The position numbers were made by a program, and so were the translations under genes. DNA of 64,000 bases, from positions 15,311 to 79,310 of IMG/VR virus record IMGVR_UViG_3300025727_000603. One strand, written 5' to 3'. The stretch comes from a virus. Position 1 is the stretch's first letter. Each line of letters opens with the position of its first letter. The notes beneath the pieces are model-generated. The model made no database searches. It saw only the letters and a program-made list of their open reading frames with translations, and had not been told where the DNA came from. Of the stretch, positions 13,867 to 37,286 are shown in pieces.

Positions 13867-16800
13867 ATGGTACATATCCTAGATAAATCGACAAGAATTA
13901 ATGTCACAGAATCAGACACATTTAATGAATGGCGTTTAAAAACAAATGAAATAGGCTCCTTTATTGGTGATAAGCACCATATTGCTAGATATTCTACTAT
14001 AAATTATGATTGGATTCCTTTATGGACTGATACAGAACTCTTAAACGGGAATGACGAGAATAGAAAACATCCCGATACTAAAGTCCCTTACAGGAAAGCT
14101 TTGGTTAATATAAAAATACAGGGTATGCATGCTCTAGAGTCAACCTCTACCGAAGATTGGGTCGCTATGCAGACAGAAACTACCCAATCGATTATCAAAC
14201 AAGAAATTGACTTTGGAGGTATGCTCACAGAAGAAAATATTAGAGTTACTATTAAAACACATCAGCCAGGTGCTGTTAATGATGATGATAGGTATTACTA
14301 TGGTGATGTTGGTACTGATTACCCTTATGGCTACGCTGATAATGACATTTTAACTATTCGTGGATCGTCTATAGGTGGTGTAGATGGGATAAATGATCTT
14401 AAGGTTAAGGTGGCAGTGACAGCGAGTCATGTTAATGAGGGTGTTACCTTTAAATATATTAGTAATGTAAAAATTTCAGGTCAGCCTATTAACGAATCAG
14501 AATATGGATCAGACTACATAACTCTGGCATTAACTAAATTACCTCCGGCCTCCATATATAACGAACTTCATCAGATTAGGTCCGATTTAGCCGGCGAACA
14601 GGAAAATCCAAACTTTATTCCTTTTACAAAATTAACAACTAATGCACAAACTATAGCATTAGCTATTAATGAAGTTAATGCAAAAATTCAAGGTACACAA
14701 GGTAATTTAACATTACTTAAAACTATTGATGACGAATTACAATCAATACCTTGGTCTAAATATTATAAACAATATACGATTGATGGTAATGGCAATACCA
14801 CAATCACTGATGGTTATAAAATAGATGATATTGTCTATGTAGACCCAACGATTATAAATGACATCGGGGATACCCTATATTTTAAATCTATTACTGAATA
14901 TAATGTAGACAATCCTGTATCCCGGGATAATGACGGAAACTTTGATCGTAGTTATAATCTAACACAACAAGGTCAGGGTAACCTCGTTGAAAATGGGGTT
15001 CCTGTCGATTCATCAATAACATGGTTTCAAGTTGACAGTACTGTATATTCCTCCATGTCATTGAATAAATCCTTAAATATAGTTAATACTAGTCTCGGTA
15101 TTACTAGTAATAACACACTAGCTTCATTAAAAAATAACCATCCTGACTATACCGGCCCACAAGATACTATATATCATTCCCTAAGAAATATTGATTCTTA
15201 TATAGGTAATTACTTAGGACTTAAATCTCAAGTATATAATAGATATGTTAACCCATACCGTACAGTAACATTAGATGGAGTTGCTACTAATAATATAGAC
15301 TATTCTAGTATAGGAACCGGAGATCCTGGTACTATAAAATTACCTACAGGTATGTTGCTTAGTCAGGCCTTTACGGATCCTAACGACTTGGAATATAATT
15401 TCTTACCTGTTGATGCTGACAAAAATGGCCTATATGCGCAATGGACTACACAAGTAACCGAACCCTATCAGTTATACACTAAATCTTATCATCCTGATAC
15501 CAACGTCTTCAACGGTTTTGTTGCAGCAGCTGATGACGACATTGTAGTAGCTCTAACTAAGCTTAGGTTAAGAGTAGATATGCTCACAGAAGAGATATAT
15601 CTAACTAAGCGTGACGCAGGAGATAGTTCGGCGGCATGGCAATGGGCTCAGAGAATTACTAAGAGTGATCAATTTGAGAATAACTTTTCCGGAATGCACG
15701 GTATTATTAATATTCTTAAGGGACTAGAAGATCTTGTATCTCCGATTACAGGAGATTCTTTGGATAGAGGGAAACTATCACGTTCTGGGTTTAAAACAGA
15801 CTACGCTGATACAGCTGGTTGGGATCAGTCTATACCAACTGGTTCTAAACAAGAGCAGTCACTGACTAATAATATTTATGAAGATTATGACTCTTCTCAT
15901 GTAGAAGGTCCTTTATGGGCTGGCTCCACTGATTCTGATGATAAGCCATTAGGTATTATTGCAGGTAGTATTACACGAATATCGGCGGATGGTGGTTATA
16001 AACCTCAATACTCATCTGATCTTCTAATACTAAGAACTGCAGGGGTAACTCCTGTTGATGGGACTAGCCACAATAATATTGATTTTCCAAGCACGGTAAC
16101 TGGAACCTCTAAATCGGCCGATATTAGGACATTATATCCAGAACGAATAGTTATTAATAACGGTAGTGAAACACAGGTAGCTATAGGTTATACTGAAACT
16201 GATCGTACAGATACTAATTTCTGGACTAATAACGACAACACATTTATTGACCACTCCAGTAACCCGAGTTGGGTCTGGGAAACCTCCTCTGGACTAAACT
16301 TACTTCAGCAGACAGCTACAGACCAACCAATGAACCTGGATGTTAAGGGGGATATAAGAGCAACTAATAAGATATATATTGGACCTTCTGATAACATAAG
16401 GTCAATTGACGATTTATACTTATCATCAGGTATTAGAGAAAAGGAAGCGAGTGAAAATGCACCTGTCCAAAATATATTTACTAAACCTATTTTCCGTGAA
16501 GGTTTAGTAGTCCACTCTGAAAAACCAATGAATGATTGGTATACCTTTACGGAGGATGGAAGAATACAGCCTGATGCTCAACTTCTGCAGAGAGAAATAG
16601 AGGATGTTGTAGGGGCTATGGTTACTGATAAAATCTCTGCAACCGGTACCCCAAGCACTCTTAATATGGAATCTGGTTTAAACGTTCGGTATGACAGTCT
16701 TAAAGCAGATACTAATAGTGGTCTAAGGTCTCCACATCAAGCAACTTTAAACTTTGAGGTTCATTCACCTGATATTTTAATTACAGGAGATATGTTAGGA

Positions 16801-18405
16801 AACACCAAGATGATGAGTTTATCCGATGTAGTAATTGATACTCATATCAATAAAGACTCAACGTATATCAAAAAAGTAGTTAAAGAACTTGTATATGACT
16901 CTTTAAATCCAGCTCATTGGGATTCAAGCGTTACAAACAAATATCATGACGGAATATCGGTCACTGATGCTCATAGTGGGATGGCTTCAAATAAATACTA
17001 TCGTGCTATGAAAATGGAACTTTTAGATGGGTTTGTATCTGGTGATACTCTGACATTTCATTACCATGACGGAGAGAATTTAAAAACTATTTCCATTTCG
17101 GTTCCGGATAACGTATCAACTGGTTTAAATACAAAGGGTATATATCCGGCCGGAGTAATATCACAGGATCAATACAACGATAATCCTGAATGGAAAAAAA
17201 CAGCACGGTTTGGTGCTTCTAAATGGTTATCTCAATATCTTAAAGCAGAGTCTACCCCTGAACTCGCTACCTTTAACAGCTATTGGGATGTAACCTTCGC
17301 AACATACTATGACGGTAATGCTGATGTTGTTCCTGTTATAGTATTTACAGAGAAAAACCCTCTTTCTGTCAGTAATGAAACAAATTCACCTAACAATCAG
17401 TCACAATTGTGGAAACTTGGTCTGGAGTCTACTAACGCTGGTACTATTGCCTCTGGAAATTTTGACAATAGCAATACTGACAAAGTAGCATATAATGAGA
17501 AATGGCACAGAGATGGCAACTACAATGACGAATTTAATCAATTTGATATATCTAAGGCAAACGATAGCAGTGGAATCTATACCAAAAATAAAACACCTCA
17601 GTATGCAGACAATTATATAACATCAATAGTAAATGTGCAAATTTCTGAACCTGAAATTATTAAAGATGATTTATCAGATACTCCTAAATTATCTTTAAAT
17701 ATAGCAGGACAGACATCTACTAACCACATAGGGTCTTTCACACCATCAATAAGTGTTAATTCAAACGGCGTGGCAGAATTAACAATTACAACTAGTGAGG
17801 ATTTGACACCTTGGAAGGACGAGGGATACCTTAAATCGGCACCTAATAATACATACTCGGCAAGCGCTACCGGTCATATGACTAAAAGTACAACCCAATG
17901 GGCCAGTGGAATTTTTAGCACAGATGCCGAACCTGGTACATCAACTGACTTCAAAGCAGGTAAAATTGTTTCTCGTAATGATTCGGGTGACTTCTATGCT
18001 AATATTATGAATGGTACAGCAACTAAAGCCCGATATGCAGATTTAGCGGAAAACTATGTTGCTGATAAACAATATGAAGTTGGTACAGTATTATCCTTAG
18101 GTGGTGAATTTGAGGTTACAGAATCAGATAGGATAATGGATTCTAGAATCGTAGGAGTCGTTTCTGAAAATCCTGCATACTTAATGAATTCATATTGTAC
18201 AGGTGAATTTATAGCTACTGTAGCACTAAGAGGAAGAGTACCTGTTAAAGTAGAAGGACCAGTTGATAAAGGTGACATTATTATATCATCTGGAAGAGGT
18301 ACAGGAGTTTCTAATAATAACCCTTCATTTGGTTCTATTATAGGAAAGGCTGTAGTATCTAAAACTTCTGAAGGTACCGAGTTAATAGAGGTAGTTATCA
18401 CCTAA
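13867..18405 (+). CDS. Fibritin/neck-appendage-like fibre (1512 aa) with C-terminal intramolecular chaperone (peptidase G2-like autocleavage) domain
   Basis: N-terminal INVTESDTFNEWRLKTNEIG virion-anchor motif and coiled-coil segment LTTNAQTIALAINEVNAKI. C-terminal YADLAENY...GTVLSLGG...IVGVVSENPAYLMN...VALRGRVPVKV...KGDII...IIGKA. Confidence 0.7.
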   Translation: MVHILDKSTRINVTESDTFNEWRLKTNEIGSFIGDKHHIARYSTINYDWIPLWTDTELLNGNDENRKHPDTKVPYRKALVNIKIQGMHALESTSTEDWVAMQTETTQSIIKQEIDFGGMLTEENIRVTIKTHQPGAVNDDDRYYYGDVGTDYPYGYADNDILTIRGSSIGGVDGINDLKVKVAVTASHVNEGVTFKYISNVKISGQPINESEYGSDYITLALTKLPPASIYNELHQIRSDLAGEQENPNFIPFTKLTTNAQTIALAINEVNAKIQGTQGNLTLLKTIDDELQSIPWSKYYKQYTIDGNGNTTITDGYKIDDIVYVDPTIINDIGDTLYFKSITEYNVDNPVSRDNDGNFDRSYNLTQQGQGNLVENGVPVDSSITWFQVDSTVYSSMSLNKSLNIVNTSLGITSNNTLASLKNNHPDYTGPQDTIYHSLRNIDSYIGNYLGLKSQVYNRYVNPYRTVTLDGVATNNIDYSSIGTGDPGTIKLPTGMLLSQAFTDPNDLEYNFLPVDADKNGLYAQWTTQVTEPYQLYTKSYHPDTNVFNGFVAAADDDIVVALTKLRLRVDMLTEEIYLTKRDAGDSSAAWQWAQRITKSDQFENNFSGMHGIINILKGLEDLVSPITGDSLDRGKLSRSGFKTDYADTAGWDQSIPTGSKQEQSLTNNIYEDYDSSHVEGPLWAGSTDSDDKPLGIIAGSITRISADGGYKPQYSSDLLILRTAGVTPVDGTSHNNIDFPSTVTGTSKSADIRTLYPERIVINNGSETQVAIGYTETDRTDTNFWTNNDNTFIDHSSNPSWVWETSSGLNLLQQTATDQPMNLDVKGDIRATNKIYIGPSDNIRSIDDLYLSSGIREKEASENAPVQNIFTKPIFREGLVVHSEKPMNDWYTFTEDGRIQPDAQLLQREIEDVVGAMVTDKISATGTPSTLNMESGLNVRYDSLKADTNSGLRSPHQATLNFEVHSPDILITGDMLGNTKMMSLSDVVIDTHINKDSTYIKKVVKELVYDSLNPAHWDSSVTNKYHDGISVTDAHSGMASNKYYRAMKMELLDGFVSGDTLTFHYHDGENLKTISISVPDNVSTGLNTKGIYPAGVISQDQYNDNPEWKKTARFGASKWLSQYLKAESTPELATFNSYWDVTFATYYDGNADVVPVIVFTEKNPLSVSNETNSPNNQSQLWKLGLESTNAGTIASGNFDNSNTDKVAYNEKWHRDGNYNDEFNQFDISKANDSSGIYTKNKTPQYADNYITSIVNVQISEPEIIKDDLSDTPKLSLNIAGQTSTNHIGSFTPSISVNSNGVAELTITTSEDLTPWKDEGYLKSAPNNTYSASATGHMTKSTTQWASGIFSTDAEPGTSTDFKAGKIVSRNDSGDFYANIMNGTATKARYADLAENYVADKQYEVGTVLSLGGEFEVTESDRIMDSRIVGVVSENPAYLMNSYCTGEFIATVALRGRVPVKVEGPVDKGDIIISSGRGTGVSNNNPSFGSIIGKAVVSKTSEGTELIEVVIT

Positions 18406-19151
18406 TGATCGGTATTCTTGGTTATGGTTTTGTTGGGAAAGCAGTTGATAAAGGGTTCACAAAAACAGATAAAATAATATCGGACCCTTTATATAATGAC
18501 GTATCTATTGAAGATATGATGGATACAGAATGTATATTTGTATGCCTTCCAACACCTACAGTAAACGGTAAAATAGAAGCAACAATACTATTAAATGCAC
18601 TCAAGCATCTAGAAGAACTCGAGTACTCTGGTCTTATAATAATAAAATCTACTGTTCTTCCAGACCTAATTAAAGGGTACTCTAATAATGTAGTATGTGT
18701 ACCGGAATTCTTATCTAGAGCAACAGCTCACCATGATTTCATTAACCCTCATGTATTAATAATAGGATCAAATTCTATTGTTACATCACACCATACTTTA
18801 GCTATATTTAAGAAATATTCTGAGGTTTCCACAAAGAATGTACATCTAACAGATATAAAAACAGCTTGTATATTAAAGTATACTATGAATACCTTTAATG
18901 CCCTAAAAATAACATATTTAAACGAGATATATAAAGTATGTGGGATAGAGGGTATAGATTACAAAGAAATAGTATCTGTATTAGAGCGAGTACCGAGAAT
19001 GGGTACAGGTCTTTTTGATGTTCCTGGTCCAGATGGTAAGTATGGATTTGGTGGTCCGTGTCTTCCTAAAGATGCTGAGTCTTTTGCCTCTGCATACTCT
19101 ATGGATTTAGTAAAAGGTATATTAGAGGTTAATTCGTTATTAAGACATTAA
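18405..19151 (+). CDS. UDP-glucose/GDP-mannose 6-dehydrogenase family protein (short form)
   Basis: Rossmann GILGYGFVGKA, CLPTP, IKSTV, PEFL and catalytic GFGGPCLPKD. TAATG overlap with the fibre gene stop. Confidence 0.9.
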   Translation: MIGILGYGFVGKAVDKGFTKTDKIISDPLYNDVSIEDMMDTECIFVCLPTPTVNGKIEATILLNALKHLEELEYSGLIIIKSTVLPDLIKGYSNNVVCVPEFLSRATAHHDFINPHVLIIGSNSIVTSHHTLAIFKKYSEVSTKNVHLTDIKTACILKYTMNTFNALKITYLNEIYKVCGIEGIDYKEIVSVLERVPRMGTGLFDVPGPDGKYGFGGPCLPKDAESFASAYSMDLVKGILEVNSLLRH

Positions 19152-20128
19152 ATGTTCTATTATCAGAAGGGTGTAATCTAAACTGCTCATATTGTGGAAT
19201 GGATAAATGGTCTAAAACCACTATATCTCAAGATTCTGTAATAAATAGATTTAAAGAACTTAGACTTGAGTACCCTAATGATCGTATACGAATAGACTTT
19301 TTTGGAGGTGAACCTCTTCTCCAAATGAAGATGGTTAAGTCAATTATATCAAAGATGAAGAAAGTTGATGATAATTATACCTTAGCTATGCCTACTAATG
19401 GGATATCTCTAACACCTGGAATACTAGATTACCTAAAAAAAGAAAAAGTCTCTGTATCTCTCTCATTCGATGGCTTATGGCAAAACGATAGGAGACCTAT
19501 TAGAGATTCCAATCTATCTTCTTTAAATGTACTGTACGCTAAACGAAAATTGTTTTCTGGATTAAAATGTCATTCTATGATATCCGGATCTGACTATAAT
19601 TTACTAGAAAATCATTTATATATAACTCAAAATTTTGGGATGAATCCTGAACTAACATTAGTTAGGGATAGAGGGACATGGACACCAGAATCAGTTAAAC
19701 TTCTTCAGATCGGTATTAACGAAATTTATGAGTGGTACAAAAATAATCTCTCTGAAGATATGCCTAATTTTATATTATTCTGGCTTCGCGATATATTAAG
19801 ATATCATTATAAAGGATTTACAGTTGAAGGATGTGGTGTAGGAAGAGATCTTCATGCATTAACAGAGACTGGAGAGTCCGTTACATGTGACAGATTTGCT
19901 GGGGATAAAGAAGCAGTTGAGAAGATAAATGAGTTTTACTCTATGCCTGAATGCTCAACTTGTCGTGTAAAGAATTATTGTCATAAAGGTTGTATGTATG
20001 AACAAATTAAGTCAAATGGGCCAATCCCTGAACTTTGTGATATATATAAGTATTGTTATGATAAAACAAAAGAAATACTACCCCTGATACCTAAAGATAT
20101 AATAAGGAGAGAATTGAATGATTCATGA
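19139..20128 (+). CDS. Radical SAM/SPASM enzyme 1 (true start upstream of the listed ORF, probably ATT at 19139)
   Basis: Upstream in-frame extension KTLNVLLSEGCNLNCSYCG supplies the CxxxCxxC motif (19172-19195). Also FFGGEPLL, PTNG, SFDG and SPASM cysteines GCGVG...TCDRF...CSTCRVKNYCHKGC...LC. Confidence 0.9.
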   Translation: MKTLNVLLSEGCNLNCSYCGMDKWSKTTISQDSVINRFKELRLEYPNDRIRIDFFGGEPLLQMKMVKSIISKMKKVDDNYTLAMPTNGISLTPGILDYLKKEKVSVSLSFDGLWQNDRRPIRDSNLSSLNVLYAKRKLFSGLKCHSMISGSDYNLLENHLYITQNFGMNPELTLVRDRGTWTPESVKLLQIGINEIYEWYKNNLSEDMPNFILFWLRDILRYHYKGFTVEGCGVGRDLHALTETGESVTCDRFAGDKEAVEKINEFYSMPECSTCRVKNYCHKGCMYEQIKSNGPIPELCDIYKYCYDKTKEILPLIPKDIIRRELNDS

Positions 20129-20348
20129 TATTACTGATATTAATCAGATTAATACAAGATTATTGAAGACTGTTACACACCTGATAGATGCGTCTAAATA
20201 TCTTTCGGATATACCTGAATTTCAAGAAGAATCCTATAAAATTGCTCTTCTGGCAAAATGTTTTATTGATGTAGTCGAACCTCAAAAAGAAAAAATTACA
20301 GAAGAAACAATTAATTCTATACTAGATGAGATATTAAATGCTCAATAA
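20118..20348 (+). CDS. Hypothetical protein (76 aa, helical) between the two SPASM enzymes
   Basis: AAGGAG RBS upstream; overlaps both neighbours. Confidence 0.7.
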   Translation: MIHDITDINQINTRLLKTVTHLIDASKYLSDIPEFQEESYKIALLAKCFIDVVEPQKEKITEETINSILDEILNAQ

Positions 20349-21474
20349 TAAAAGACAACAATTTACGTTTGAAATTACAACTACTGCTCTCTGTAATATG
20401 AATTGTACATATTGCTTTGAAGGTCTAAAAACAGATAAGCGTACTTTAAACAATGTACAGGTTTCTGTATTAAAGTCTAAAATAGAGGAAATATTAAAAT
20501 CCAATTGGTTTTTAAGAGATTATGGAGTCCTTAATATATCATTTTGGGGTGGAGAACCTACATTAAATGGACCATTAATTGTTGATATGATGAATACATT
20601 CGAGCTAAATGATTCTGTAACCTATCATATATATACTAATGGACTAGATAGAAAGAAACTTGATTATGTACTTGATTCAGTATCTACAGATAAACTTGCA
20701 ATTCAGGTATCTTGGGATGGTGATGTCATTAATAAAAAGTATAGAGTTCAGGGAGTAGATAAAGATACAACTGCACGAGTACTTAATAATTTAGAGTATC
20801 TAATAGAAAGGGGTATAAACGTCTCAATGAAAGCTACAATACCTCTAGAGTCTATGGACGATATTGAAGAAACATGGGATTCATACAAAACTTTATATGA
20901 CAAATTAGGGTCTAGAGCTAATATATCTTATGCCCCTACAATAGATTATGTAAATGAATTACCTGAGGAGACCCAAGAAGCTTCAATAGCTACATTTAGA
21001 TCAGCTATGATTAGAGTAGCAAAAAAGGAATTAGAATTTTATAAAGAGCATAATCATTTTTTATGCTCTTGGTTTGACGGTAATGAGCAGAAAGTACATT
21101 GTTCCTCGGGTGCTAATATGGTTGCTATAGATGTAACGGGTAAGTCTTATGCGTGTCATGGTTCATTATATTCTCCTAATAAAGAATCAATGGGTTCAGG
21201 ATCTATAACAGATGCTGAGTGGGTTAAGAATTTAGGTTCTGAAACTAAAAAATATAAAAAGGCTATTAAAACTGTACCTGAAACATGTGTAGATTGTGTT
21301 GCAACAACTTGTATGATTTGCCCTGTATCTTCCTTAGATAATTCAAAAAAATCAGATTTTATGGATAGGTGGACTGATAGATATATAAATAATATGTGTG
21401 GGTATTTTAAAACATTTGGTGAAATAGACCGAGCGGTTGTAACCAAAATAAACAGAGAAAGAGAAGAGGCATAG
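20338..21474 (+). CDS. Radical SAM/SPASM enzyme 2
   Basis: CNMNCTYC, FWGGEPTL, YTNG, SWDG. Auxiliary cysteines HCSSG...ACHG...CVDCVATTCMICP...MC. Confidence 0.92.
   Translation: MLNNKRQQFTFEITTTALCNMNCTYCFEGLKTDKRTLNNVQVSVLKSKIEEILKSNWFLRDYGVLNISFWGGEPTLNGPLIVDMMNTFELNDSVTYHIYTNGLDRKKLDYVLDSVSTDKLAIQVSWDGDVINKKYRVQGVDKDTTARVLNNLEYLIERGINVSMKATIPLESMDDIEETWDSYKTLYDKLGSRANISYAPTIDYVNELPEETQEASIATFRSAMIRVAKKELEFYKEHNHFLCSWFDGNEQKVHCSSGANMVAIDVTGKSYACHGSLYSPNKESMGSGSITDAEWVKNLGSETKKYKKAIKTVPETCVDCVATTCMICPVSSLDNSKKSDFMDRWTDRYINNMCGYFKTFGEIDRAVVTKINREREEA
21384..21391 (+). promoter_or_regulatory. Candidate T4-type late promoter TATAAATA for the Cys-tail gene
   Basis: Exact consensus ending 86 nt before the ATG at 21478. 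It lies within the upstream CDS, so it may be chance in AT-rich DNA. Confidence 0.45.
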
Positions 21475-21477
21475 ACT

Positions 21478-22266
21478 ATGACAAATACATACGGGACATC
21501 AACCTTTATACCAGAAGATAAGTGGCATACAGCTTCGACCGGTGGAAACGAATACAAATCAGTCAGTTCTACTTGTAGCGGTCATAGAGCTAATAATTCC
21601 CACAATAATGTAGACTGGAACCTATTTGGGACTGACACAATAATCAGCATAGGTGATTATAATACTATATACGATGCTGTTCAGACAGAACTAGAAGAAT
21701 GGTTAGCGTTTAAAAACTACAGTGGTACAAAGACATATTCGGATCTAAAAGGTTATAGAAATGTAGGTTCCAGAAAAACAACAGATAGTGTAATAGACGA
21801 TCAAGATCTTGTCGCTATCCATTCTATATTAGAGGCTATACTTGGAGAAAACGGAGCAAAACATACAAACACTAATTATGGAAATAGCGGTCAAGCTAAC
21901 CGAATAGGTACGGGATGGACTAACAGCTCAGGTACTGCTCCTACATCAACAAAAACAAGCGCTGAGAAAGTTAAAATCACTGATGTTACCTCTACTGCTA
22001 TTAGAAAAGGTGCTGTTAAAGGGGCGGGCATGATTGAAAAATCGTATAGTTCAGAATTTGGTGGTAAGGTAGAAGGTACGCTTATTCAAAACGAATTCTA
22101 CAATCCAACTGGTGCAGCTGAGTTTGATGGAAAAACGAGATGGGCAGACAATTCCATTGAGGAAAAATTTAACCGATGTCGTAGTAATTGTATTTGCGAT
22201 TCTGATTGTGCCTGTAATGCTGTTTGTAATTGTAACAATAACTGTGATTGTAATTATACTCAATAG
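21478..22266 (+). CDS. Putative virion protein / radical-SAM substrate with periodic Cys-rich C-terminal tail
   Basis: Thr/Ser/Gly/Asn-rich body like the structural proteins. Ends CRSNCICDSDCACNAVCNCNNNCDCNYTQ (9 Cys, period 6). Directly follows two SPASM enzymes. Confidence 0.75.
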   Translation: MTNTYGTSTFIPEDKWHTASTGGNEYKSVSSTCSGHRANNSHNNVDWNLFGTDTIISIGDYNTIYDAVQTELEEWLAFKNYSGTKTYSDLKGYRNVGSRKTTDSVIDDQDLVAIHSILEAILGENGAKHTNTNYGNSGQANRIGTGWTNSSGTAPTSTKTSAEKVKITDVTSTAIRKGAVKGAGMIEKSYSSEFGGKVEGTLIQNEFYNPTGAAEFDGKTRWADNSIEEKFNRCRSNCICDSDCACNAVCNCNNNCDCNYTQ

Positions 22267-22278
22267 GAGATGAAATAA

Positions 22279-22893
22279 ATGATGATATATAATATGGCAC
22301 TAGTGACAGATAAAGGAACACATTTTGAGATAAATGGGGTTACAACTAACGTAGCCTCTAATATAAAAAACAAAGAAGAGCACTATCTTAATCTTTCTTC
22401 AAAAGCAGCAGAAATTATTAAGGAAGCATTAAACTCTGGTAATAATAGAATTAATGTCTATAAACCATTAAAGTCTATGGAAGTTTTACCGGGAGAAGTT
22501 ATTATAGAGGATATAGATCCAGAAGATATCAGAAATGTTAAATCGTCAGAGATTAAAAGAATCAGGGTCCTAATAACACCCGAACTAGCTTCCATTTCAG
22601 GTATAGCACTCTATTCATGGATTATGCTTAATAATGAACTAAATTCTAAAGGATACTTTATATATGATGGTAATAGAGAAGAAGTATACCTAAGTATATT
22701 AGAAACTGGTGATGAAGAGCTTATTAACAAGCTGGAAGAATATTTAAATTATAAAGATGAGATTGCTAGAGTAGCTCAATTAAATTCTAAATTTTCTAAT
22801 ATTATTAAAGAAATAATGACTCTTACAGATAAAGATGAGATTATTGAGAAAGCTAACAAATTTATAGAAAATTATATGAAGTTAAATGATTAA
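22279..22893 (+). CDS. Hypothetical protein (204 aa, acidic helical C-terminal half)
   Basis: Strong AGGAG RBS and long ORF; no recognisable catalytic motif. Confidence 0.75.
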   Translation: MMIYNMALVTDKGTHFEINGVTTNVASNIKNKEEHYLNLSSKAAEIIKEALNSGNNRINVYKPLKSMEVLPGEVIIEDIDPEDIRNVKSSEIKRIRVLITPELASISGIALYSWIMLNNELNSKGYFIYDGNREEVYLSILETGDEELINKLEEYLNYKDEIARVAQLNSKFSNIIKEIMTLTDKDEIIEKANKFIENYMKLND

Positions 22894-22895
22894 TA

Positions 22896-23666
22896 ATGAG
22901 CAGGCGAATTGGTGTAGTATATAAATGGCAAATACATAATAAGATAAATGGATCTTTATTCTATGCATTTGAGTATGCAGTATACCTCAAAACTGAGCTA
23001 TACATAGTAGGAATCACAAAAGAAGATTTAAATCTAGTTAACAATATCTTCAGAGCAAAATACTCTATTTCTCCGGTGAATATTAAATCAATTAATGTAA
23101 CTAATTTATATAGCCTTGATCTCCAGAAAACTCTATTAGTTGATATTAAATCGTTCTATAATGTAAAGGAATTCCTGACAGGAGATGTTCATGTATTCTC
23201 CGATGTATCTCATCCTATGTTTAGATATAAGAATGAAAGGAGTGTAACATACTATGGATCATATGATTATCAGAATTATGATGTATTTAATTATCTTAAA
23301 TTAAACTTTTCTATATTTAAAGATATTATAAAGTCTGAAGATAAAACCTTTGTATCAGGGGTGTATCCATTCTTAGGATTCTCGAAATATCGGAATAAAG
23401 ATAATATTATAATGAAAGAACATTATGTGGGTCGTGGAGATTTATTTGAATTAATATCTTCAGTAGTATATGTACATAGCTCACGTGATACTAATAATAG
23501 AATAATTCCAGAAGCCTTTTATTACTCTAAGAAAATTAAAATCATTGAAGAACTAGAGAATATAATAGACTCTGTTACTCTTAGATATAATGATATTAAG
23601 ACTAATGGTCTTTCTAATTATACATTATCCCGTGACGATATGATGATACAAGGAATGCTAGGATGA
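22896..23666 (+). CDS. Divergent GT-B-fold glycosyltransferase-like protein A
   Basis: C-terminal DTNNRIIPE (D-x7-E) followed by AFYYSKKI; N-terminal INGSLFYAFEY loop; resembles the next gene. Confidence 0.45.
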   Translation: MSRRIGVVYKWQIHNKINGSLFYAFEYAVYLKTELYIVGITKEDLNLVNNIFRAKYSISPVNIKSINVTNLYSLDLQKTLLVDIKSFYNVKEFLTGDVHVFSDVSHPMFRYKNERSVTYYGSYDYQNYDVFNYLKLNFSIFKDIIKSEDKTFVSGVYPFLGFSKYRNKDNIIMKEHYVGRGDLFELISSVVYVHSSRDTNNRIIPEAFYYSKKIKIIEELENIIDSVTLRYNDIKTNGLSNYTLSRDDMMIQGMLG

Positions 23667-24619
23667 GTAAAATACTACAATTACCTAAAGAATATGAATT
23701 ATGGTTGACTTATTCATGGAGTAATGACAACCACGGCATATGTGGTCATACTTTTGAAGTCATTGATTACTACCATATATTAAAAAACCATTTTAAAGTT
23801 GGTATATTATTAGCTGAAGATATAGATATGAATATGTTTGTTCAGGCTATTCAAGAGAAATACGATTTTAATACTGATGAACTTAAAGATATAAAGCGAA
23901 ATACTCTTTTTAAAAAGAGACCTAGACTAGTATCAGGATCTAATATTATCTTTACTGATGGTGGTGTATTATCAACAAAAGATAGTACATTACTATTTGA
24001 TAATATCTTTCATATGGCTTGTGGTGATAAAGAAATAAAAGATAATACAAAAGAAAATGTGTGGATACTTCAAGATGATAGAGTTTATGACCCAGTAACT
24101 CTTAATGGTATTAATTACAAAAAGAAGATACTATTTTCTAGATTAAAACGACTTAAACGACCTGCATTATTCCCTGGCTGGTTAAGAACTATTATGCTAT
24201 ATTCTACTAAGAATTGTCGTAATATTCCAGAAGCTCAAATTAAAAAAATATCTAATAAGTATAAAGGATATCATATAATGGTGCTTACTAACTCAGAAAA
24301 TAAAGGTAAAGACTCTGAGTGGATTAAATATTATGAAGTACCTACAAAGGATCTATTTAATCGGTTTATTATGTATTATTATACACCTATAGAAAGGAAG
24401 CATGATTGTTCTCCTAGGTTTATAGCTGAGTGTAGGTATTATAATAAACAAGTTGTATACGATTCTAAAATAAACGATGAGTATCTTCAGACGGACTTAG
24501 GGTTAAAGTATAGAATGCAGGATATTGAAGAGGACTTTGAGTCTTTATACTTAGAGGAAAATGATGACATAATTAATATTATTAAGAATATTATATATAA
24601 TGAGCCCAATAAACTATAA
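23663..24619 (+). CDS. Divergent GT-B-fold glycosyltransferase-like protein B
   Basis: C-terminal DCSPRFIAE (D-x7-E) followed by CRYYNKQV; N-terminal ICGHTFEVIDY; ATGA overlap. Confidence 0.45.
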   Translation: MSKILQLPKEYELWLTYSWSNDNHGICGHTFEVIDYYHILKNHFKVGILLAEDIDMNMFVQAIQEKYDFNTDELKDIKRNTLFKKRPRLVSGSNIIFTDGGVLSTKDSTLLFDNIFHMACGDKEIKDNTKENVWILQDDRVYDPVTLNGINYKKKILFSRLKRLKRPALFPGWLRTIMLYSTKNCRNIPEAQIKKISNKYKGYHIMVLTNSENKGKDSEWIKYYEVPTKDLFNRFIMYYYTPIERKHDCSPRFIAECRYYNKQVVYDSKINDEYLQTDLGLKYRMQDIEEDFESLYLEENDDIINIIKNIIYNEPNKL

Positions 24620-25646
24620 CATTGTATCACATCATAAGATTCAGCCTGAAAATAAAGACAAACTATGTTCAAGAGCTAAGTTAGACACAGGTACTCATTG
24701 TAATTATGACTGTGAGTTCTGCTATTACGGAGAACAACTCCATATTCGTACTGATACTGATGTTATAAAGAAACGTATTGATTATCTCTGGGATACAGGT
24801 ATGGAAGAAATAGACTTCTCTGGAGGGGAATCTTCTATACATAAAGACTTTTTTGAGCTAATACAATATACCAAAGATAAAGGTTTCTCTAACATATCTA
24901 CACTATCTAATGGACACAAATTCTCCAAGATTGACTTTATGCGCAAGGCCTATGATGCTGGCCTAACAGAAATATTATTTTCTGTTCACGGCGCTAATGG
25001 AAGTATACATGATAAAATAGTAAGACGATCAGGAGCATTTAATCGTATTATTAAAGCTATTAATCTCTGTAGAGAAGTAGGTATTAAAGTTCGTATCAAT
25101 ACTACTGTTACTATGGAAAACTTTACTGCTTTATCAGAATTCTCTACACTAATTCAAAGTCTCGATGCTGATGTATTTGAGGTTAACTACTTACCCCTAA
25201 ATCATTGGGATGACGCTAAGACACAGATACCATTAGATTATAATGTAGTATGTACTGAAATAAAAAAGTCTATTGACATACTTAAATCAGCAGTTAAAAT
25301 AATTAATGTTAGATATACTCCATACTGTTACATGGGAGGGTATGAGAAATATGTATGCTCTACATATCAACATATATGGGATGTCTATGATTGGAATATC
25401 GGGGTATATGACTATTCTGTTGATCCTCAGGTATATAAAAAAGATCCTCTAAAACATCTACTTAAAGTAGCTAAAGAAAATAGAAATCAAACATATATGA
25501 AACCTAAATCATGTATGGGATGTAAGTATTTTTTTATATGTGATGGTATTGAGACTGAAAATAACTCTACTCTACCCTTAGCAATAAAAGGTGAATTGAT
25601 ATATAATCCTATACATTATCGTAAAGGATATTATGAATCTATTTGA
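24600..25646 (+). CDS. Radical SAM enzyme 3 with C-terminal CxxCx5C
   Basis: CNYDCEFC, FSGGESS, LSNG, FSVHG; C-terminal SCMGCKYFFICDG. Confidence 0.92.
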   Translation: MSPINYNIVSHHKIQPENKDKLCSRAKLDTGTHCNYDCEFCYYGEQLHIRTDTDVIKKRIDYLWDTGMEEIDFSGGESSIHKDFFELIQYTKDKGFSNISTLSNGHKFSKIDFMRKAYDAGLTEILFSVHGANGSIHDKIVRRSGAFNRIIKAINLCREVGIKVRINTTVTMENFTALSEFSTLIQSLDADVFEVNYLPLNHWDDAKTQIPLDYNVVCTEIKKSIDILKSAVKIINVRYTPYCYMGGYEKYVCSTYQHIWDVYDWNIGVYDYSVDPQVYKKDPLKHLLKVAKENRNQTYMKPKSCMGCKYFFICDGIETENNSTLPLAIKGELIYNPIHYRKGYYESI

Positions 25647-26694
25647 ATTAATACCAACAGATGAGTATCCTACATTCGACTTTAAAGTTACATTAAAACC
25701 CTCATTTAGATGTAATCAAGCTTGTTGGTTCTGTACTGAATATGATAATAATTCGTATGAATGGTCAAAAGTGGATTGTAATAAAGTATTAGATAAGCTT
25801 GATAATGTATTAAAACCTTATCAATCTATTTTTATATACTTCTATGGTGGTGAGCCTACTCTATCTAAATATTATGAGTATCTACATTATGAGATTACTA
25901 GAAGACACAGACATAAAAAATTATTTATACAGACACAAACTAATGGTTCTATGGAGACTGAGAGGTTAAAAACTTTTCTTAATACATTAGAATTATATGA
26001 TGGGCATACATTAGATATATCAACTTCTGTACATCTTAATAAACAGAAGATTGAAAATCTAATAGATAAGCTTAAAATATTAAGAGAGTATAATGTACTA
26101 GGTAATATATTTCCTTCTACTGAATACCTTCATGAAGAACAATTTATAGAAGAGTTGAAGTTAATGATACAGGAATTTGATAATAAAGTCAAGATAAAAT
26201 TCACAGAAATTGGTTTAGGAGTTATTAATTCAAGAGAAGCTCAATTATATCCTTTGGATCAAGGTGATATTAAATCATTTGAATTTAGATATTTTACACA
26301 GAAATATCCTTTTCTACTTAATCATCTTGAAGAGGGATTTAATTTTCAGGTAGATGATAAGGTTGTTAACTATTCTATGGTGAAAGCTAATGATATACAT
26401 AAACAAGTGAGATTTATGAAGTGTGAGTGCGGCACTAAGAATCTTGTTATAGACCATAACCTAAAGATGTATAGGTGTAATGACGACTTTTATAACAACA
26501 TAGGTATACAAGATATAACAGAGGATATAGAGATAAAAAATAAGTATTGTCTTAATAAGGCTTGTTATGATGGTCTAGAGTTTAGGAAATGGAAACCTAT
26601 CACTATACAACCTCAGAAGGATATACCAGAATTTTGTAAACCATGTACCTCGGCATATTGTTCATATAATTGTAGGAGAGATAATAATGAATAA
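25633..26694 (+). CDS. Radical SAM enzyme 4 (twitch-like domain plus extra Cys-rich tail)
   Basis: CNQACWFC, FYGGEPTL, QTNG, SVH; C-terminal CECG..YRC..CLNKAC and FCKPCTSAYCSYNC. Confidence 0.9.
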   Translation: MNLFELIPTDEYPTFDFKVTLKPSFRCNQACWFCTEYDNNSYEWSKVDCNKVLDKLDNVLKPYQSIFIYFYGGEPTLSKYYEYLHYEITRRHRHKKLFIQTQTNGSMETERLKTFLNTLELYDGHTLDISTSVHLNKQKIENLIDKLKILREYNVLGNIFPSTEYLHEEQFIEELKLMIQEFDNKVKIKFTEIGLGVINSREAQLYPLDQGDIKSFEFRYFTQKYPFLLNHLEEGFNFQVDDKVVNYSMVKANDIHKQVRFMKCECGTKNLVIDHNLKMYRCNDDFYNNIGIQDITEDIEIKNKYCLNKACYDGLEFRKWKPITIQPQKDIPEFCKPCTSAYCSYNCRRDNNE

Positions 26695-27532
26695 AGATTG
26701 TATTCAGGAACTAGAAATTGATTTAATTGATGCCTGTAACCTATCATGCCCTTTATGTAATAGGAATGTATTAAAGTCTAAAGATGGTTATATCCCTTTA
26801 GATGAATGGATCTCTATTTTTGATCAGTACAAATATCTAAAGGCTATATTCCTCATTGGAACTAGATCTGAACACACATTATATCCAGAATTTTTAAACC
26901 TCATGAGGTACTTTAAGAGTAGAGGATTATCAATTATTATATCGACTAATGGTTGTACTAATAAATTAAATTTTTGGTCTGAATTAAAAGATATACTACA
27001 AGTCGAAGATGAAGTTCGATTTGCCGTTGATGGTATTACCCAAGATATATATGAGCAATATAGAGTTGGTGGTAATCTAGAAAAATTAATGAATAATCAT
27101 AAAGCTTTTAAATCAGAGAAAGATAATGATATAATGCAATATATTAGATTTGAGCATAACCAGCATGAAGACATTACTGAGTTCCTTCAGCAGTTCTCTG
27201 GATTAAGAACTACTAATTCCTCTTTTGAAGGTAATCATGATGGTTCTATTGTTAAACAAACTCCTCAGGATTCTAAGAGATATAACTTAGTTACAAAAAT
27301 TATACGGAATAGAAAACCAAATATAAGCTGTGAAACTAAGGGTAAGATGCACTTTATTAACCACAGAGGTCAGACTTCTCCTTGTTGTTATTATAATGAA
27401 GATGTTGTACTTCAGGGTGGTGAATGGGATGGGACATATGAAGATATTGAAGCAGCTAAATTTGACTTTTGTACAATAATGTGTGATAAGTTTTGTACGA
27501 ATCTGTTAAAGTCGTTAGATATAGAATTATGA
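26687..27532 (+). CDS. Radical SAM enzyme 5 (twitch/SPASM-like)
   Basis: CNLSCPLC, STNG, FAVDG..YEQYRVGG, FEHNQH; C-terminal ISCE..PCCY..FCTIMCDKFC. The usual GGE motif is replaced by GTRSE. Confidence 0.88.
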   Translation: MNKDCIQELEIDLIDACNLSCPLCNRNVLKSKDGYIPLDEWISIFDQYKYLKAIFLIGTRSEHTLYPEFLNLMRYFKSRGLSIIISTNGCTNKLNFWSELKDILQVEDEVRFAVDGITQDIYEQYRVGGNLEKLMNNHKAFKSEKDNDIMQYIRFEHNQHEDITEFLQQFSGLRTTNSSFEGNHDGSIVKQTPQDSKRYNLVTKIIRNRKPNISCETKGKMHFINHRGQTSPCCYYNEDVVLQGGEWDGTYEDIEAAKFDFCTIMCDKFCTNLLKSLDIEL

Positions 27533-28092
27533 GAGTATCTATATTAATACTAACACATAATAGACCTCTCTTATTTAAGCGGTGTATTTCATCAGTATTA
27601 TTAAATAAACCAGAGAATGTAGAAATATTAGTTAATAATGATTCAAAAGATATAAAGGAGATTGCTGGTGCGACATATTATTATAAAACTCATTCGGATC
27701 TAAGTGATACTTATAAGTATCTATTTAATAAGGCCTCAGGTGAATTTATATATTTTTTAGAAGACGATGATTATGTATCTTCTGACTTTTGGAAGATACT
27801 ATCTCAGGTTAAAGAGAATACAGTATTTAGATATATCCCTGAGAAGAGTATTAAGTTATACTATGAATACTTTATACATAACCCTTCATTTGAAGAACAT
27901 TTTCAATTAGGGCAACTGGTATTTAAAAAGAAATCATTAACCTCCTTTCCAAAAGGTAATAATATACACAATGATTATCAACTATATAAATCTCTTTCGG
28001 GTTCGATAATGAATGATCGAAGACCAATTTATACACAAACTACTGATGGTAACGACAATATAAGTTTTGATGAATATCCAGAAACAATATGA
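27529..28092 (+). CDS. Glycosyltransferase family 2 (GT-A fold)
   Basis: MRVSILILTHNR...EILVNND...GEFIYFLEDDDY (DxD). Start reassigned to ATG 27529 (ATGA overlap). Confidence 0.88.
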   Translation: MRVSILILTHNRPLLFKRCISSVLLNKPENVEILVNNDSKDIKEIAGATYYYKTHSDLSDTYKYLFNKASGEFIYFLEDDDYVSSDFWKILSQVKENTVFRYIPEKSIKLYYEYFIHNPSFEEHFQLGQLVFKKKSLTSFPKGNNIHNDYQLYKSLSGSIMNDRRPIYTQTTDGNDNISFDEYPETI

Positions 28093-29017
28093 TGTAAAGC
28101 ATAAAATGCAAAGACTCTATGTACATTGGGATGTATCTACTCAATGTCAATTAGAGTGTTCGTATTGTTATGCCATAAAAGACTATGGTTCAGAGTGGGG
28201 TAATATTGATTCATGGGTACGTCAAAAGTTAGTAATTAGGAATATAGCCCACTCAACTCTTCCTGTCTTTCTTGGCCTCCTAGGAGGTGAACCTACAATA
28301 CATCCTCGTTATAATGAGTTAGTAGCTCTTTGCCATGAAGCTATATCTAAACACAAAGATGGTAGACTATATATTACTACTAATGGTTTAAATCCTACTC
28401 GTTGGTTTGAGAAATTAAAGTACTATGATAATATGTATTTTTTATGGTCAGCTCATTTCGAATATGAAGATAAATATGGTACTGGGTTTCAAAGGATTAT
28501 AGATAATATAAAGGTGGTAACAGACAAAGGGTTTAGATCTAAGATAAATGTAATGTTAAATCCTGACCCAAAAACTTGGCCTAAGATACATGCTCTGGTA
28601 GACCAATTAGAAAAGATAGAGGGTCTAGAGATACATCCACATTTCTTATATAACGAGGGGAATGTACATGATCTTTATAAATATTCACCTGAGTTTTATG
28701 AAGAGTTTAAGAGATTTGAGGATTATCCCAATTATCTAGTGTTTGAGGATAATGGTGAAAAGACTATATATAATGACTACACCATATTTAATAATAAGAA
28801 GACTTCATTTACTGGATGGGATTGTTACAATAATAACTATGAAATTGATTATAAAGGAAGTGTAAATAGATTCTGTTTTGATGAGTCAGATGATCTAATT
28901 ACTAACTTTAACTTTTTTCGTGACATAGGAAAGGTGACACCAGTTAAATGTCCCCACTCAACATGCAACTGTGATGGATTACTAAAGATATGCAAAGTGA
29001 ATCGAAAAAACTTGTAA
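28070..29017 (+). CDS. Radical SAM enzyme 6
   Basis: CQLECSYC, LLGGEPTIHP, TTNG, SAHFE; C-terminal WDC..FC..CPHSTCNCDG. Confidence 0.92.
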   Translation: MNIQKQYDVKHKMQRLYVHWDVSTQCQLECSYCYAIKDYGSEWGNIDSWVRQKLVIRNIAHSTLPVFLGLLGGEPTIHPRYNELVALCHEAISKHKDGRLYITTNGLNPTRWFEKLKYYDNMYFLWSAHFEYEDKYGTGFQRIIDNIKVVTDKGFRSKINVMLNPDPKTWPKIHALVDQLEKIEGLEIHPHFLYNEGNVHDLYKYSPEFYEEFKRFEDYPNYLVFEDNGEKTIYNDYTIFNNKKTSFTGWDCYNNNYEIDYKGSVNRFCFDESDDLITNFNFFRDIGKVTPVKCPHSTCNCDGLLKICKVNRKNL

Positions 29018-29907
29018 AGTCCGGCCGAGCAAAAGCTGATGTCTATATTGGGTATGATATAACTTATAGATGTAATTTAAGATGTGAGTATTGTTATGTA
29101 CTACATAAGCTTGATAACAAATTAACGGGTAACAAGTTTATAGCTACCATGGTTTTATTAAAATTAAAACGATTTCTCTCAGAGAATAAAGATAAAACTG
29201 TAGAATTTGATATTTTAGGAGGTGAGCCTTTATCGTTCGAGGGACTTACTGAATATGTACATAAACTAGAAGATATTCGACTAGAATATAACAATCTTAA
29301 AATTATAACAATTACAACTAACGGAGTATTCCCTACACTCCCTAATTTTAATGATATTGAATATAATAATAATATTCAATTTCAGGTGTCGTATCATAAC
29401 TACTCAAATAATATCAAACTTTTAAAGGAGAACCTACTAAAGTTTCTAAGAATTACAGATCTAGTTACATTAACAATTCATTTATATGATGATAAATTAA
29501 GAATTCAAGAGATTAGAGATATTATAGAGTTCTGTAATTCTAATCATATACATACTTGTACTATAGATATTAACGACCTTGGTAATGATTTTAAAATGGT
29601 AAATAATTCTGTATTCACTGAGATATCAGACTTAACTTCTCTAGATAATATTAAAAATTATCAAGTAGGTAACACAGAGATGTCAAGAAAGAATATACAT
29701 GACATAAACTGGATAAAGGACTCAATGAAATACTGTAATCTTTCTTGTTTTAATATAGATTACTACGGTGACATTACAGCGGATTGTAATTATACTTTAG
29801 ATAGAAAAAATATTACAACATCTGATATAGAACTCTATAAAGTATACTGTAAACATATATCGTGTATGGGTGGTTCTGGTTTAGACCAGAAGAAGGAATA
29901 TGTATGA
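28990..29907 (+). CDS. Radical SAM enzyme 7
   Basis: CNLRCEYC, ILGGEPL, TTNG, SYH; C-terminal YC..DC..CKHISC. Confidence 0.92.
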   Translation: MQSESKKLVKSGRAKADVYIGYDITYRCNLRCEYCYVLHKLDNKLTGNKFIATMVLLKLKRFLSENKDKTVEFDILGGEPLSFEGLTEYVHKLEDIRLEYNNLKIITITTNGVFPTLPNFNDIEYNNNIQFQVSYHNYSNNIKLLKENLLKFLRITDLVTLTIHLYDDKLRIQEIRDIIEFCNSNHIHTCTIDINDLGNDFKMVNNSVFTEISDLTSLDNIKNYQVGNTEMSRKNIHDINWIKDSMKYCNLSCFNIDYYGDITADCNYTLDRKNITTSDIELYKVYCKHISCMGGSGLDQKKEYV

Positions 29908-30653
29908 TAATTAACCAGCTTAAACTATATAGGCGATGGGAACGTATAATGTCTAAGGGTCATTCTCTATCTCCCACGATGTTTAGTCTAAAGAAAACAC
30001 TCTACTTTAATAATAAAGTATCAAAACTTCTATATAAAGACACAGGTGTGTTGGTTGACGTAAAATCAATTATTCCTTTAGTAAGTCATGAAAACAAGTT
30101 TACATATAATTGTGTCATTAACTCTAAAAAATATGTATTAAAGAATGAGCTACGGCGTAATATAGAATCAACTCTTATATATCAATTTTACTATTTTGAT
30201 AAATTGAAAAAGAGATATCCATTTGTTTTTGAGAGATTTAGGACAAAGGAAGATGTTCTAAAGTATAATTCGATTAAGGCAAAAGAATTAATTAATTTTA
30301 TAGGCTCCTACGAATACTCTATACAAGAACACCTTCCAGAGTTATTAGAGGAAACTGATAATTTTTTTGTATTTAAATACTATGATATTATAGAGTATTC
30401 AGAGGATGAATATAAGAATAATATGCATACCTTATTAAATATATTTAATAATGATATTGTACCTATAGTTTTAGCGCGCCAGAATGTCGCGAAGTTAGTA
30501 GACTCAGATAAGTTTATAATGTATGATATTGATATATTAAATAAAGATCCTATAATTAATTGGCCACGCGAGGGAGTTTGTACGATAGCTCCCTCTGGAA
30601 TGGATGATAACAATTGTGATGGTCTTCTCAAAATATATAAGGAGAAGAAATGA
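29904..30653 (+). CDS. Hypothetical protein, possibly degenerate kinase-like fold
   Basis: Start reassigned to ATG 29904 (ATGA overlap, AAGGA RBS). Weak kinase-like elements KYVLK, LARQN, FIMYDID. C-terminus copies that of rSAM 6. Confidence 0.55.
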   Translation: MIINQLKLYRRWERIMSKGHSLSPTMFSLKKTLYFNNKVSKLLYKDTGVLVDVKSIIPLVSHENKFTYNCVINSKKYVLKNELRRNIESTLIYQFYYFDKLKKRYPFVFERFRTKEDVLKYNSIKAKELINFIGSYEYSIQEHLPELLEETDNFFVFKYYDIIEYSEDEYKNNMHTLLNIFNNDIVPIVLARQNVAKLVDSDKFIMYDIDILNKDPIINWPREGVCTIAPSGMDDNNCDGLLKIYKEKK

Positions 30654-32369: not shown

Positions 32370-32379
32370 AGTACTGAGA

Positions 32380-37269: not shown

Positions 37270-37286
37270 ATAAATATATATAAATA
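37269..37286 (+). promoter_or_regulatory. Tandem T4-type late promoters TATAAATA (37269-37276 and 37279-37286)
   Basis: Two exact copies, essentially intergenic, 36-54 nt upstream of ATG 37323. Confidence 0.8.

Follow-up and report, generated by a model that had tools for sequence, protein, structure and literature searches.

A conserved cysteine-array protein of large T4-like aquatic phages is a candidate substrate of an adjacent radical-SAM enzyme

In this study we examine a 64,000-nucleotide (nt) stretch of viral DNA (hereafter the window), which corresponds to positions 15,311 to 79,310 of IMG/VR record IMGVR_UViG_3300025727_000603, a 79-kb virus record estimated to be 35% complete. Our subject is a gene at 21478–22266 whose 262-amino-acid (aa) product ends in a periodic array of cysteines and which lies directly behind a gene for a radical S-adenosylmethionine (rSAM) enzyme with a SPASM motif. 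We find that this protein is a member of an undescribed family of fibre-like proteins in large T4-like aquatic phages, and that the family is probably the protein substrate of the upstream enzyme. Enzyme and substrate is the most economical reading because the pairing of a SPASM enzyme with a cysteine-repeat tail is invariant, deeply conserved and mobile. We put the probability that the array of this fibre-like protein is crosslinked by the adjacent rSAM enzyme at about one half, and the thioether detail would be less certain than the substrate relation itself.

The cysteine array defines an undescribed protein family

The gene and the features of its product are located as follows.

21478–22266, plus strand: array-protein gene (P0001, 262 aa), an open reading frame with its translation, one 79%-identical orthologue and about 70 remoter relatives
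22189–22257, plus strand: family-conserved (CxCxxx)4 array, residues 238–260, CICDSDCACNAVCNCNNNCDCNY, from the 68-sequence alignment
22177–22179, plus strand: codon of C234, the ninth tail cysteine, on the 6-residue lattice and not family-conserved
21571–21588, plus strand: TCSGHR (residues 32–37), remnant of an N-terminal Cys/His motif, with C33 conserved in at least 90% of members
21580–21852, plus strand: predicted helical core, about residues 35–125, the only confident part of the AlphaFold2 (AF2) model

Translation of 21478–22266 on the plus strand yields 262 residues that terminate in CRSNCICDSDCACNAVCNCNNNCDCNYTQ. Cysteines occupy residues 33, 234, 238, 240, 244, 246, 250, 252, 256 and 258, and the tail is laid out as four CxC pairs at an exact spacing of six residues, with C234 on the same lattice. 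The initial annotation had described nine tail cysteines with this periodicity, Asn or Asp three residues before (i-3) six of them, and a remainder with one cysteine that is rich in Thr, Ser, Gly and Asn. Translation confirms the periodicity, although only eight of the nine cysteines are conserved in the family, the column of C234 being mostly L, I or M elsewhere. The remainder does contain a single cysteine and is composed of 12.4% T, 10.3% G, 9.9% S and 8.6% N. The count of six in nine for Asn/Asp at i-3 is likewise right, but within this one sequence it is not significant (shuffle p = 0.15) because half of the tail consists of N or D; the alignment suggests that the pattern draws its weight from conservation across the family, not from the window sequence. 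The C.C...C.C...C.C pattern has no second occurrence in the six-frame translation of the window. No DNA tandem repeat was detected beneath the array, so that its periodicity is maintained at the protein level. A chance or slippage origin of the cysteine repeat was considered and is ruled out by the missing tandem repeat together with the family-wide conservation.

A word-based search returned a single close relative, P0003, which is 79% identical and is encoded on a fully syntenic phage contig. An exhaustive phmmer search over 1.8 billion representatives added 25 remote relatives of 74–272 aa, and scans of IMG/VR, metagenomes and species genomes enlarged the family to about 70 distinct relatives, of which 68 unique sequences were aligned. 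The array consensus of this alignment is [D/N]-C-[IVL]-C-N-[ST]-D-C-[AS]-C-N-x-V-C-x-C-[HN]-[NG]-[DN]-C-G-C-N-Y. Seven of the eight array cysteine columns are invariant, and 63 of 68 sequences keep Cys in the eighth, which is that of the second cysteine in pair two. Y260 is also invariant, D243 and N247 are each retained in 65 of 68, and the D/N that precedes and the N/H that trails each CxC approach the cysteines in conservation. The resulting hexad, D-C-x-C-N-x, sets N or D three residues ahead of most cysteines. Most members carry the N-terminal motif MACSGxHCxxHxTGTxTCxGHRxxCxTNR, of which the window copy retains TCSGHR alone, and the helical segment is also common to most of the family, whose members range in size from 150 to 300 aa. 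The sequences thus suggest an architecture of N-terminal Cys/His motif, helical core, variable Thr/Ser/Gly-rich middle and C-terminal (CxCxxx)4 array.

No Pfam, NCBIfam or PHROG model matches the array protein. The window protein and eight relatives gave no Pfam or NCBIfam match at E values up to 1, with the Pfam copy used possibly lacking PF27846; a PF27846 cluster appears in an Atlas listing with a score of 0.83, which we regard as a lead only, PF27846 being, like the TIGR04463 partners, among the Cys-rich families of modification targets. A PDB sequence search with the 40-aa tail found nothing similar, and the 50,697 isolate phage records contain no relative of the array protein. A match of one Peptidase_S74-bearing relative to Brucella phage Tb was set aside, as it covers the S74 domain only of a protein without a cysteine array.

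Between the window gene and its counterpart in an otherwise near-identical phage, divergence lies upstream of the array. In that locus, L002 (10001–10789), the last 126 nt of the gene are 100% identical to the window gene, and the whole protein is 79% identical at the amino acid level. This makes the array gene the most diverged gene of its genomic island relative to L002, where the immediate neighbours are 97–99% and the next most diverged island genes 84–86% identical. A diverged middle next to an identical 3' end suggests that the middle region is fast-evolving or recombining. The array gene is also present, with zero differences, in independent marine metagenomes of another year. Metatranscriptome contigs from two marine libraries match the window with 100% identity at 19677–19899, 21298–21526 and 21714–21914, one of them spanning the junction between the upstream enzyme gene and the array gene; as DNA carry-over is possible, we do not take these matches as evidence of expression.

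The array gene is linked to an rSAM enzyme gene

Two enzyme genes lie upstream of the array gene.

20338–21474, plus strand: rSAM/SPASM enzyme 2 (rSAM 2), 378 aa, with a Radical_SAM Pfam match, PapB as best NCBIfam model and CteB (5WGG) as nearest structure
19139–20128, plus strand: rSAM/SPASM enzyme 1 (rSAM 1), about 329 aa from an ATT at 19139 (called ATG at 19199), with CNLNCSYC and a SPASM motif

Co-occurrence of the tail with SPASM enzymes in other phages, which the initial annotation had proposed as a check, is borne out. Upstream flank of 1 kb or more is available for 37 distinct array genes. An rSAM 2 orthologue of 30–99% identity immediately precedes 36 of them, and the remaining one is the second member of a tandem pair in L057. 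At that locus (1168–2124) paralogous array genes of 157 aa each stand behind one rSAM 2 orthologue. A gene for a 204-aa protein follows in all 39 loci with sufficient flank, and the window gene order is repeated in 18 of the 18 viral contigs first retrieved, each with 5–13 radical-SAM genes; across the lineage as a whole the number is 5–16 per contig. Tail-bearing homologues in genomes without the enzymes, which would have spoken against modification, were looked for: 50,697 isolate phage records, IMG/VR, metagenomes and one genome each of 185,579 species yielded no case of the cysteine tail without an enzyme.

The module is also present in two assemblies of the predatory bacterium Halobacteriovorax. 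In the one whose surroundings were examined (L060–L065; G019:C1, about 1.70–1.76 Mb), about 20 kb of chromosome adjoining aroC (chorismate synthase) and aroA/aroB carry rSAM 1, the 76-aa gene that separates the two enzyme genes in the window, rSAM 2, the array gene, the 204-aa gene and further rSAM genes. The 60 kb around the module contain no phage structural gene matching the window. A chromosomal copy without phage structural genes implies that the module moves as a unit, independently of the phage tail operon. A DegT aminotransferase and a type-IV-pilin-like protein that ends in Peptidase_S74 (P0031) are also encoded in the bacterial module.

In the reverse direction, a profile built from 27 rSAM 2 orthologues retrieved 79 viral loci. 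The remoter rSAM 2 relatives (about 26–35% identity) belong to other phages of 190–315 kb with 6–16 rSAM genes, and remodelled arrays stand behind them. For example, (CNYxCTC[N/D])n arrays with 16–35 cysteines follow the rSAM 2 relative in L086, L087, L091, L092, L103 and L106, and a (CHS[N/D])n array follows it in L093, a complete 315-kb genome; these arrays lie at positions of about 4100–4900 in L086, L091, L092, L093, L103 and L106. Other array variants also trail rSAM 2 relatives, and several of the remote array proteins retain the MAC..GH N-terminus and the NYSDxRLK ending. When array type is mapped onto the enzyme tree, 13 label changes are needed compared with a mean of 34 in shuffles, and the deepest branches have no adjacent array. 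That related rows of the tree share labels points to co-inheritance with remodelling and is not proof of co-evolution. Campylobacter phage CP220 (L021) encodes an rSAM 2 relative of 27% identity with no array beside the enzyme, and its gp140 weakly matches the middle region of the array family (E 6e-4). The CP220 group, whose genome has radical-SAM genes as well, is placed among array-bearing lineages, joined with L086, the tree marking this join as a possible artefact of long branches.

Sequence relationships of the two enzymes

The two flanking SPASM enzymes named in the initial annotation are real, in that both have the CxxxCxxC motif and a seven-cysteine SPASM motif of the kind that serves two auxiliary clusters. 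In rSAM 2 the former is CNMNCTYC, with C19, C23 and C26 invariant in 27 orthologues, and the latter reads CX12GX4C ... CX2CX4CX2C ... C, with all seven cysteines invariant in the same set. The SPASM motif of rSAM 1 is canonical (CX12GX4C ... CX2CX5CX3C ... C). Its CNLNCSYC precedes the called ATG (19199) in the same frame (19124–19201). As neither ATG, GTG nor TTG occurs after the preceding TAA, translation is likely to begin at a non-canonical ATT at 19139, in which case rSAM 1 would overlap the 3' end of the upstream dehydrogenase-like gene.

The enzymes share 24% identity over their cores. PapB, a ranthipeptide maturase, is the top-scoring NCBIfam model for both (NF047865; 75.3 bits for rSAM 1 and 77.5 for rSAM 2), followed by matches to the SCIFF, QhpD and CcpM maturases, and the nearest solved structure is the thioether synthase CteB (5WGG; E 1e-12 for rSAM 1). 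In addition, rSAM 2 can be aligned over almost the whole length to the model for anaerobic sulfatase maturases (E 2e-15) and matches the anaerobic sulfatase-maturating enzyme structures 4K36 and 4K37. The SCIFF maturase model TIGR03974 gives 59.4 and 35.8 bits, below its cut-off of 425, and neither enzyme is a member. In both enzymes the rSAM core begins no more than about 20 residues from the N-terminus, which would leave too little space for a recognition domain there, and the CteB matches start past the RiPP recognition element (RRE) of that protein, RiPP denoting ribosomally synthesised and post-translationally modified peptides. Taken together, these similarities place both enzymes in the peptide-modifying SPASM group, outside every characterised family.

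Association with Peptidase_S74 and predicted structure

In most orthologues the array runs directly into Y-S-D-x-R-L-K and a Peptidase_S74 chaperone (PF13884), which was detected in seven of nine orthologues tested (E 4e-5 to 3e-10). Known from endosialidases and T5 pb1, the S74 domain assembles fibre and spike proteins into trimers before it self-cleaves at that Ser. Some members retain only a 12-residue stub, SDERLKxxIxYC, and the window protein and its kin L014 end at the would-be cleavage point, in NYTQ and NYTA, respectively. No S74 domain occurs in the window protein or in the entire 79-kb record. As the window protein stops after NYTQ, it would therefore be equivalent to the already trimmed form, and since members without S74 carry the array, the chaperone is dispensable for it. 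The S74 link marks the family as fibre-like and, probably, as trimeric.

The AF2 model, built with 60 sequences, is confident at residues of about 35–125 (pLDDT, or predicted local distance difference test, 77–94), with predicted helices at 58–77, 87–95 and 108–122, and the array has a pLDDT of about 40 in this monomer. A three-copy complex prediction with the family alignment scored 0.00 and is uninformative either way. Fold searches with the model were unconvincing (best E 2.5 in Foldseek against the PDB, best E 0.32 against BFVD, best Z 5.4 with VIA-align).

Neighbouring genes and the surrounding island

Two further genes belong to the conserved module.

20118–20348, plus strand: 76-aa acidic helical protein between the enzymes, conserved in 16 loci
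22279–22893, plus strand: 204-aa protein, invariant downstream neighbour (39 of 39 loci), PHROG 25260 (unknown function)

The 76-aa protein has no conserved cysteine, the window copy containing one, and matches no Pfam, NCBIfam or PHROG model. The 204-aa protein has no family match apart from PHROG 25260, and AF2 predicts a small beta domain and a helical bundle for it (pLDDT 89). Its fold search returned generic helical-bundle rows (Z at most 8.9) and weak rows for the Hsp70 substrate-binding domain (E about 0.1), and a PDB profile search was empty.

The order of genes in the window is a 1512-aa structural protein, a UDP-sugar-dehydrogenase-like gene, rSAM 1, the 76-aa gene, rSAM 2 and the array gene, followed by genes for proteins of 204, 256 and 318 aa, rSAM 3 and onward. 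These genes are part of a 19-kb island (18405–37269) inside the structural region, which contains eight radical-SAM genes, a family 2 glycosyltransferase (GT2), a tryptophan-halogenase-like gene (32997–34238), two epimerase/dehydratase genes and a PIG-L deacetylase. By its gene content, the island looks like a biosynthetic cluster within the phage structural region. A truncated UDP-glucose-dehydrogenase-like gene and split transketolase-like pieces are also found in it. Giant open reading frames of 4335 and 3317 aa (631–13638 and 52665–62618) stand on either side of the region. The last 130 aa of the 1512-aa protein (13867–18405), like rSAM 2, have their nearest isolate relatives in the Campylobacter CP220 group, and those of the 130-aa domain are also found in Pseudomonas PA5oct-like phages.

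The sequence TATAAATA, which resembles T4-type late promoters, occurs at 13716, 21384, 37269–37286, 46656 and 62622, in several cases in intergenic gaps before structural genes. We considered the copy 94 nt before the array gene as an internal late promoter and rejected it, as it is found in close relatives only and the window shows no enrichment of the motif.

Discussion

We propose that the array is a dedicated substrate of rSAM 2, possibly modified jointly with rSAM 1. By analogy with CteB, PapB, NxxcB, QhpD and CrpC, rSAM 2 would bind each cysteine thiol at an auxiliary iron-sulfur (Fe-S) cluster and abstract a hydrogen from a nearby residue, with the Asn or Asp three positions before most cysteines as obvious acceptors. 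A thioether would then be formed, and repetition along the array could build up small covalent rings, stacked so as to lock or rigidify the C-terminal tip. Thioethers, unlike disulfides, could form in the reducing cytoplasm in which virions are assembled and would not be reducible afterwards. In the S74-bearing orthologues, the chaperone would trimerise the fibre and then cleave itself at the Ser of NY|SD. A single cysteine of one pair is missing in four loci (L012, L013, L018 and L055), and such losses would be easier to tolerate if each cysteine reacts alone than if symmetric pairs are needed.

Chemistry of this kind has precedents. PapB joins Cys to Asp or Glu. NxxcB forms a beta-thioether to Asn within the NxxC motifs of NxxcA (PMC9389541), and the SPASM enzyme CrpC thioether-crosslinks the whole Cys-repeat protein CrpA of Methanococcus voltae (PMC13692751). 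The latter pair resembles ours in that a full-size protein with C-terminal cysteine repeats, spaced near Asp/Gln-type acceptors, adjoins a three-cluster SPASM enzyme. However, we found no sequence relation between the systems: CrpC has an RRE and belongs to TIGR04463, against which rSAM 2 scores 31.6 bits (cut-off 525), and CrpA has a 17-residue repeat, an archaeal host and no S74 link. The ranthipeptide pairs CteB/SCIFF, PapB/freyrasin and NxxcB/NxxcA provide the nearest enzymes by profile and structure, and their substrates share the repeated cysteines with Asn/Asp partners. In contrast, the phage enzymes stay far below the family cut-offs and appear to be without an RRE, the phage substrate would be a protein of 150–300 aa with a folded helical domain, and the cysteine region is conserved in the array family and variable in ranthipeptides. 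Another partial parallel is QhpD/QhpC, in which a SPASM enzyme makes Cys-to-Asp/Glu thioethers in a protein that is retained within a larger assembly. QhpD (TIGR03906) is among the matches of both enzymes (E 1e-13 and 2e-14), far below its cut-off of 453 bits, and our system differs in having no dehydrogenase partner and a different cysteine pattern. Protein-level SPASM thioethers are therefore already known; what is new here is the phage setting, the link to S74 and the candidate substrate family. In 2017, 12 rSAM genes were noted in genomes of T4-like marine phages with no substrate assigned (PMC5332604), and our literature search found no paper linking phage rSAM enzymes to a cysteine-array protein.

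Several observations weigh against modification of the array by these enzymes, or against its likeness to known RiPP systems. Conservation in the protein is highest in the putative core, which is the reverse of typical RiPP precursors, and instead of a short leader–core precursor we find a 262-aa protein with a confidently modelled helical domain, although Asn/Asp at i-3 is present. Neither enzyme reaches the PapB cut-off of 340 bits, neither appears to contain an RRE domain, and the 76-aa neighbour gave no RRE match. With scores this far below the cut-offs, the reaction type is a guess within the peptide-modifying SPASM group. Moreover, S74 implies a folded trimer and rSAM maturases act on extended peptides, so that modification would need to precede folding. 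The positions that flank the cysteines interchange N, H and D, and one lineage has (CHSN)n, which is more like ligands for metal or hydrogen bonds than carbon acceptors. Finally, all loci lie in multi-rSAM islands with conserved gene order, and some of the adjacency may thus be inherited synteny.

The most serious rival to a crosslinked array, with which it is not mutually exclusive, is a homotrimer tip held by metal or disulfides, in which the array forms a narrow triple beta-helix, with the S74 chaperone as its nucleus in most orthologues. The CxC pairs would be turned toward the axis, where they would bind metal ions or make disulfides between chains, and the rSAM enzymes would act elsewhere, on sugars or other proteins. 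We consider this unlikely, if well worth weighing. A CxC pair places both thiols on one face of a strand, Peptidase_S74, which is known from trimeric fibres and spikes, directly follows the array in most orthologues, and the swapping of N, H and D beside the cysteines and the (CHSN)n variant would suit ligand positions. HxH iron sites are established in T4 gp37 and have been proposed for marine phages (PMC11705849), and the many sugar-pathway genes of the island could occupy the other rSAM enzymes. The gp37 needle, like the array, has a periodic x-residue-x pair motif near a fibre-like C-terminal tip, but the array has CxC in place of HxH and no sequence or fold match to gp37, which has no associated modifying enzyme. 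The comparison with S74 fibres and spikes such as the K1F endosialidase and T5 pb1 is similarly divided: the orthologues end in S74 from the usual S-D-x-R-L-K, whereas the array proteins are of small size, and their model consists mostly of helices. A trimer tip also leaves unexplained why the enzyme stays adjacent even where its identity falls to 30%, where the array is remodelled and where the module has passed to a bacterium; an S74 domain is absent altogether from the window protein and from others, the array resembles no PDB sequence, and disulfides would not form in the cytoplasm. Octahedral sites made of six thiolates are, to our knowledge, not a known geometry, which also weighs against a metal-held trimer. 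The metal alternative raised in the initial annotation thus gains from the position of S74 and from the N/H/D interchange and fails to account for the enzyme linkage. Conversely, its preferred idea of a ranthipeptide-like core fused to a virion protein stands with regard to the SPASM linkage and to the nearest enzymes, the thioether synthases CteB and PapB, but not with regard to a fusion, since the whole protein is one family.

Two other possibilities seem to us improbable. The array protein could serve as a helper or scaffold of the island, holding Fe-S clusters, iron or electrons for its eight radical-SAM enzymes or acting as a carrier, with a small molecule assembled at the C-terminus and later set free. 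The 5–16 rSAM genes per contig in this lineage would be consistent with such a role, as would the Fe-S assembly genes that T4-like marine phages with 12 rSAM genes also encode (PMC5332604) and the cluster-like island with its halogenase-like, GT2, epimerase and PIG-L genes. Against it, no Fe-S binding motif made of CxC hexads is known, it would be odd for a cofactor carrier to have an S74 fibre chaperone, and a fast-evolving middle (79% compared with 97–99% in the neighbours) better suits an exposed protein. There is a similarly small chance that the enzyme acts on the array with other chemistry, such as oxidation of Cys to formylglycine after the manner of anaerobic sulfatase maturases, epimerisation, methylation or carbon–carbon crosslinks. 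The near end-to-end alignment of rSAM 2 with the sulfatase maturase model and its matches to 4K36 and 4K37 would fit this, and low scores to every characterised family leave room for other reaction types; yet the best matches of both enzymes are thioether synthases, and known thioether substrates show this kind of many-cysteine repeat with conserved N/D at i-3 (PMC9389541; PMC13692751).

For the radical-SAM genes of marine T4-like phages, which have been without assigned substrates, a conserved candidate enzyme–substrate pair is now available. The unannotated family itself, with about 70 members of the type described here (type A) and remoter arrays of up to 35 cysteines, would be useful in the search for substrates of rSAM enzymes. 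Crosslinking of the array would carry RiPP-type chemistry beyond secreted peptides to proteins of virus particles, and phages would have a route to lock a fibre tip in a reducing cytoplasm. Were the array to bind metal instead, phages would have in it a thiolate equivalent of the HxH iron sites that have been discussed in connection with marine phages and iron cycling. In its broadest form, our proposal is that large aquatic phages use rSAM thioether synthases of their own to staple a fibre protein of the virion covalently and that the 19-kb island decorates the particle chemically. We offer this tentatively and regard it as doubtful. Were both stapling and decoration true, a viral structural protein would for the first time be seen to undergo RiPP-type modification, and stapling would give a function to part of the long-unexplained multi-rSAM sets of T4-like marine and Campylobacter phages.

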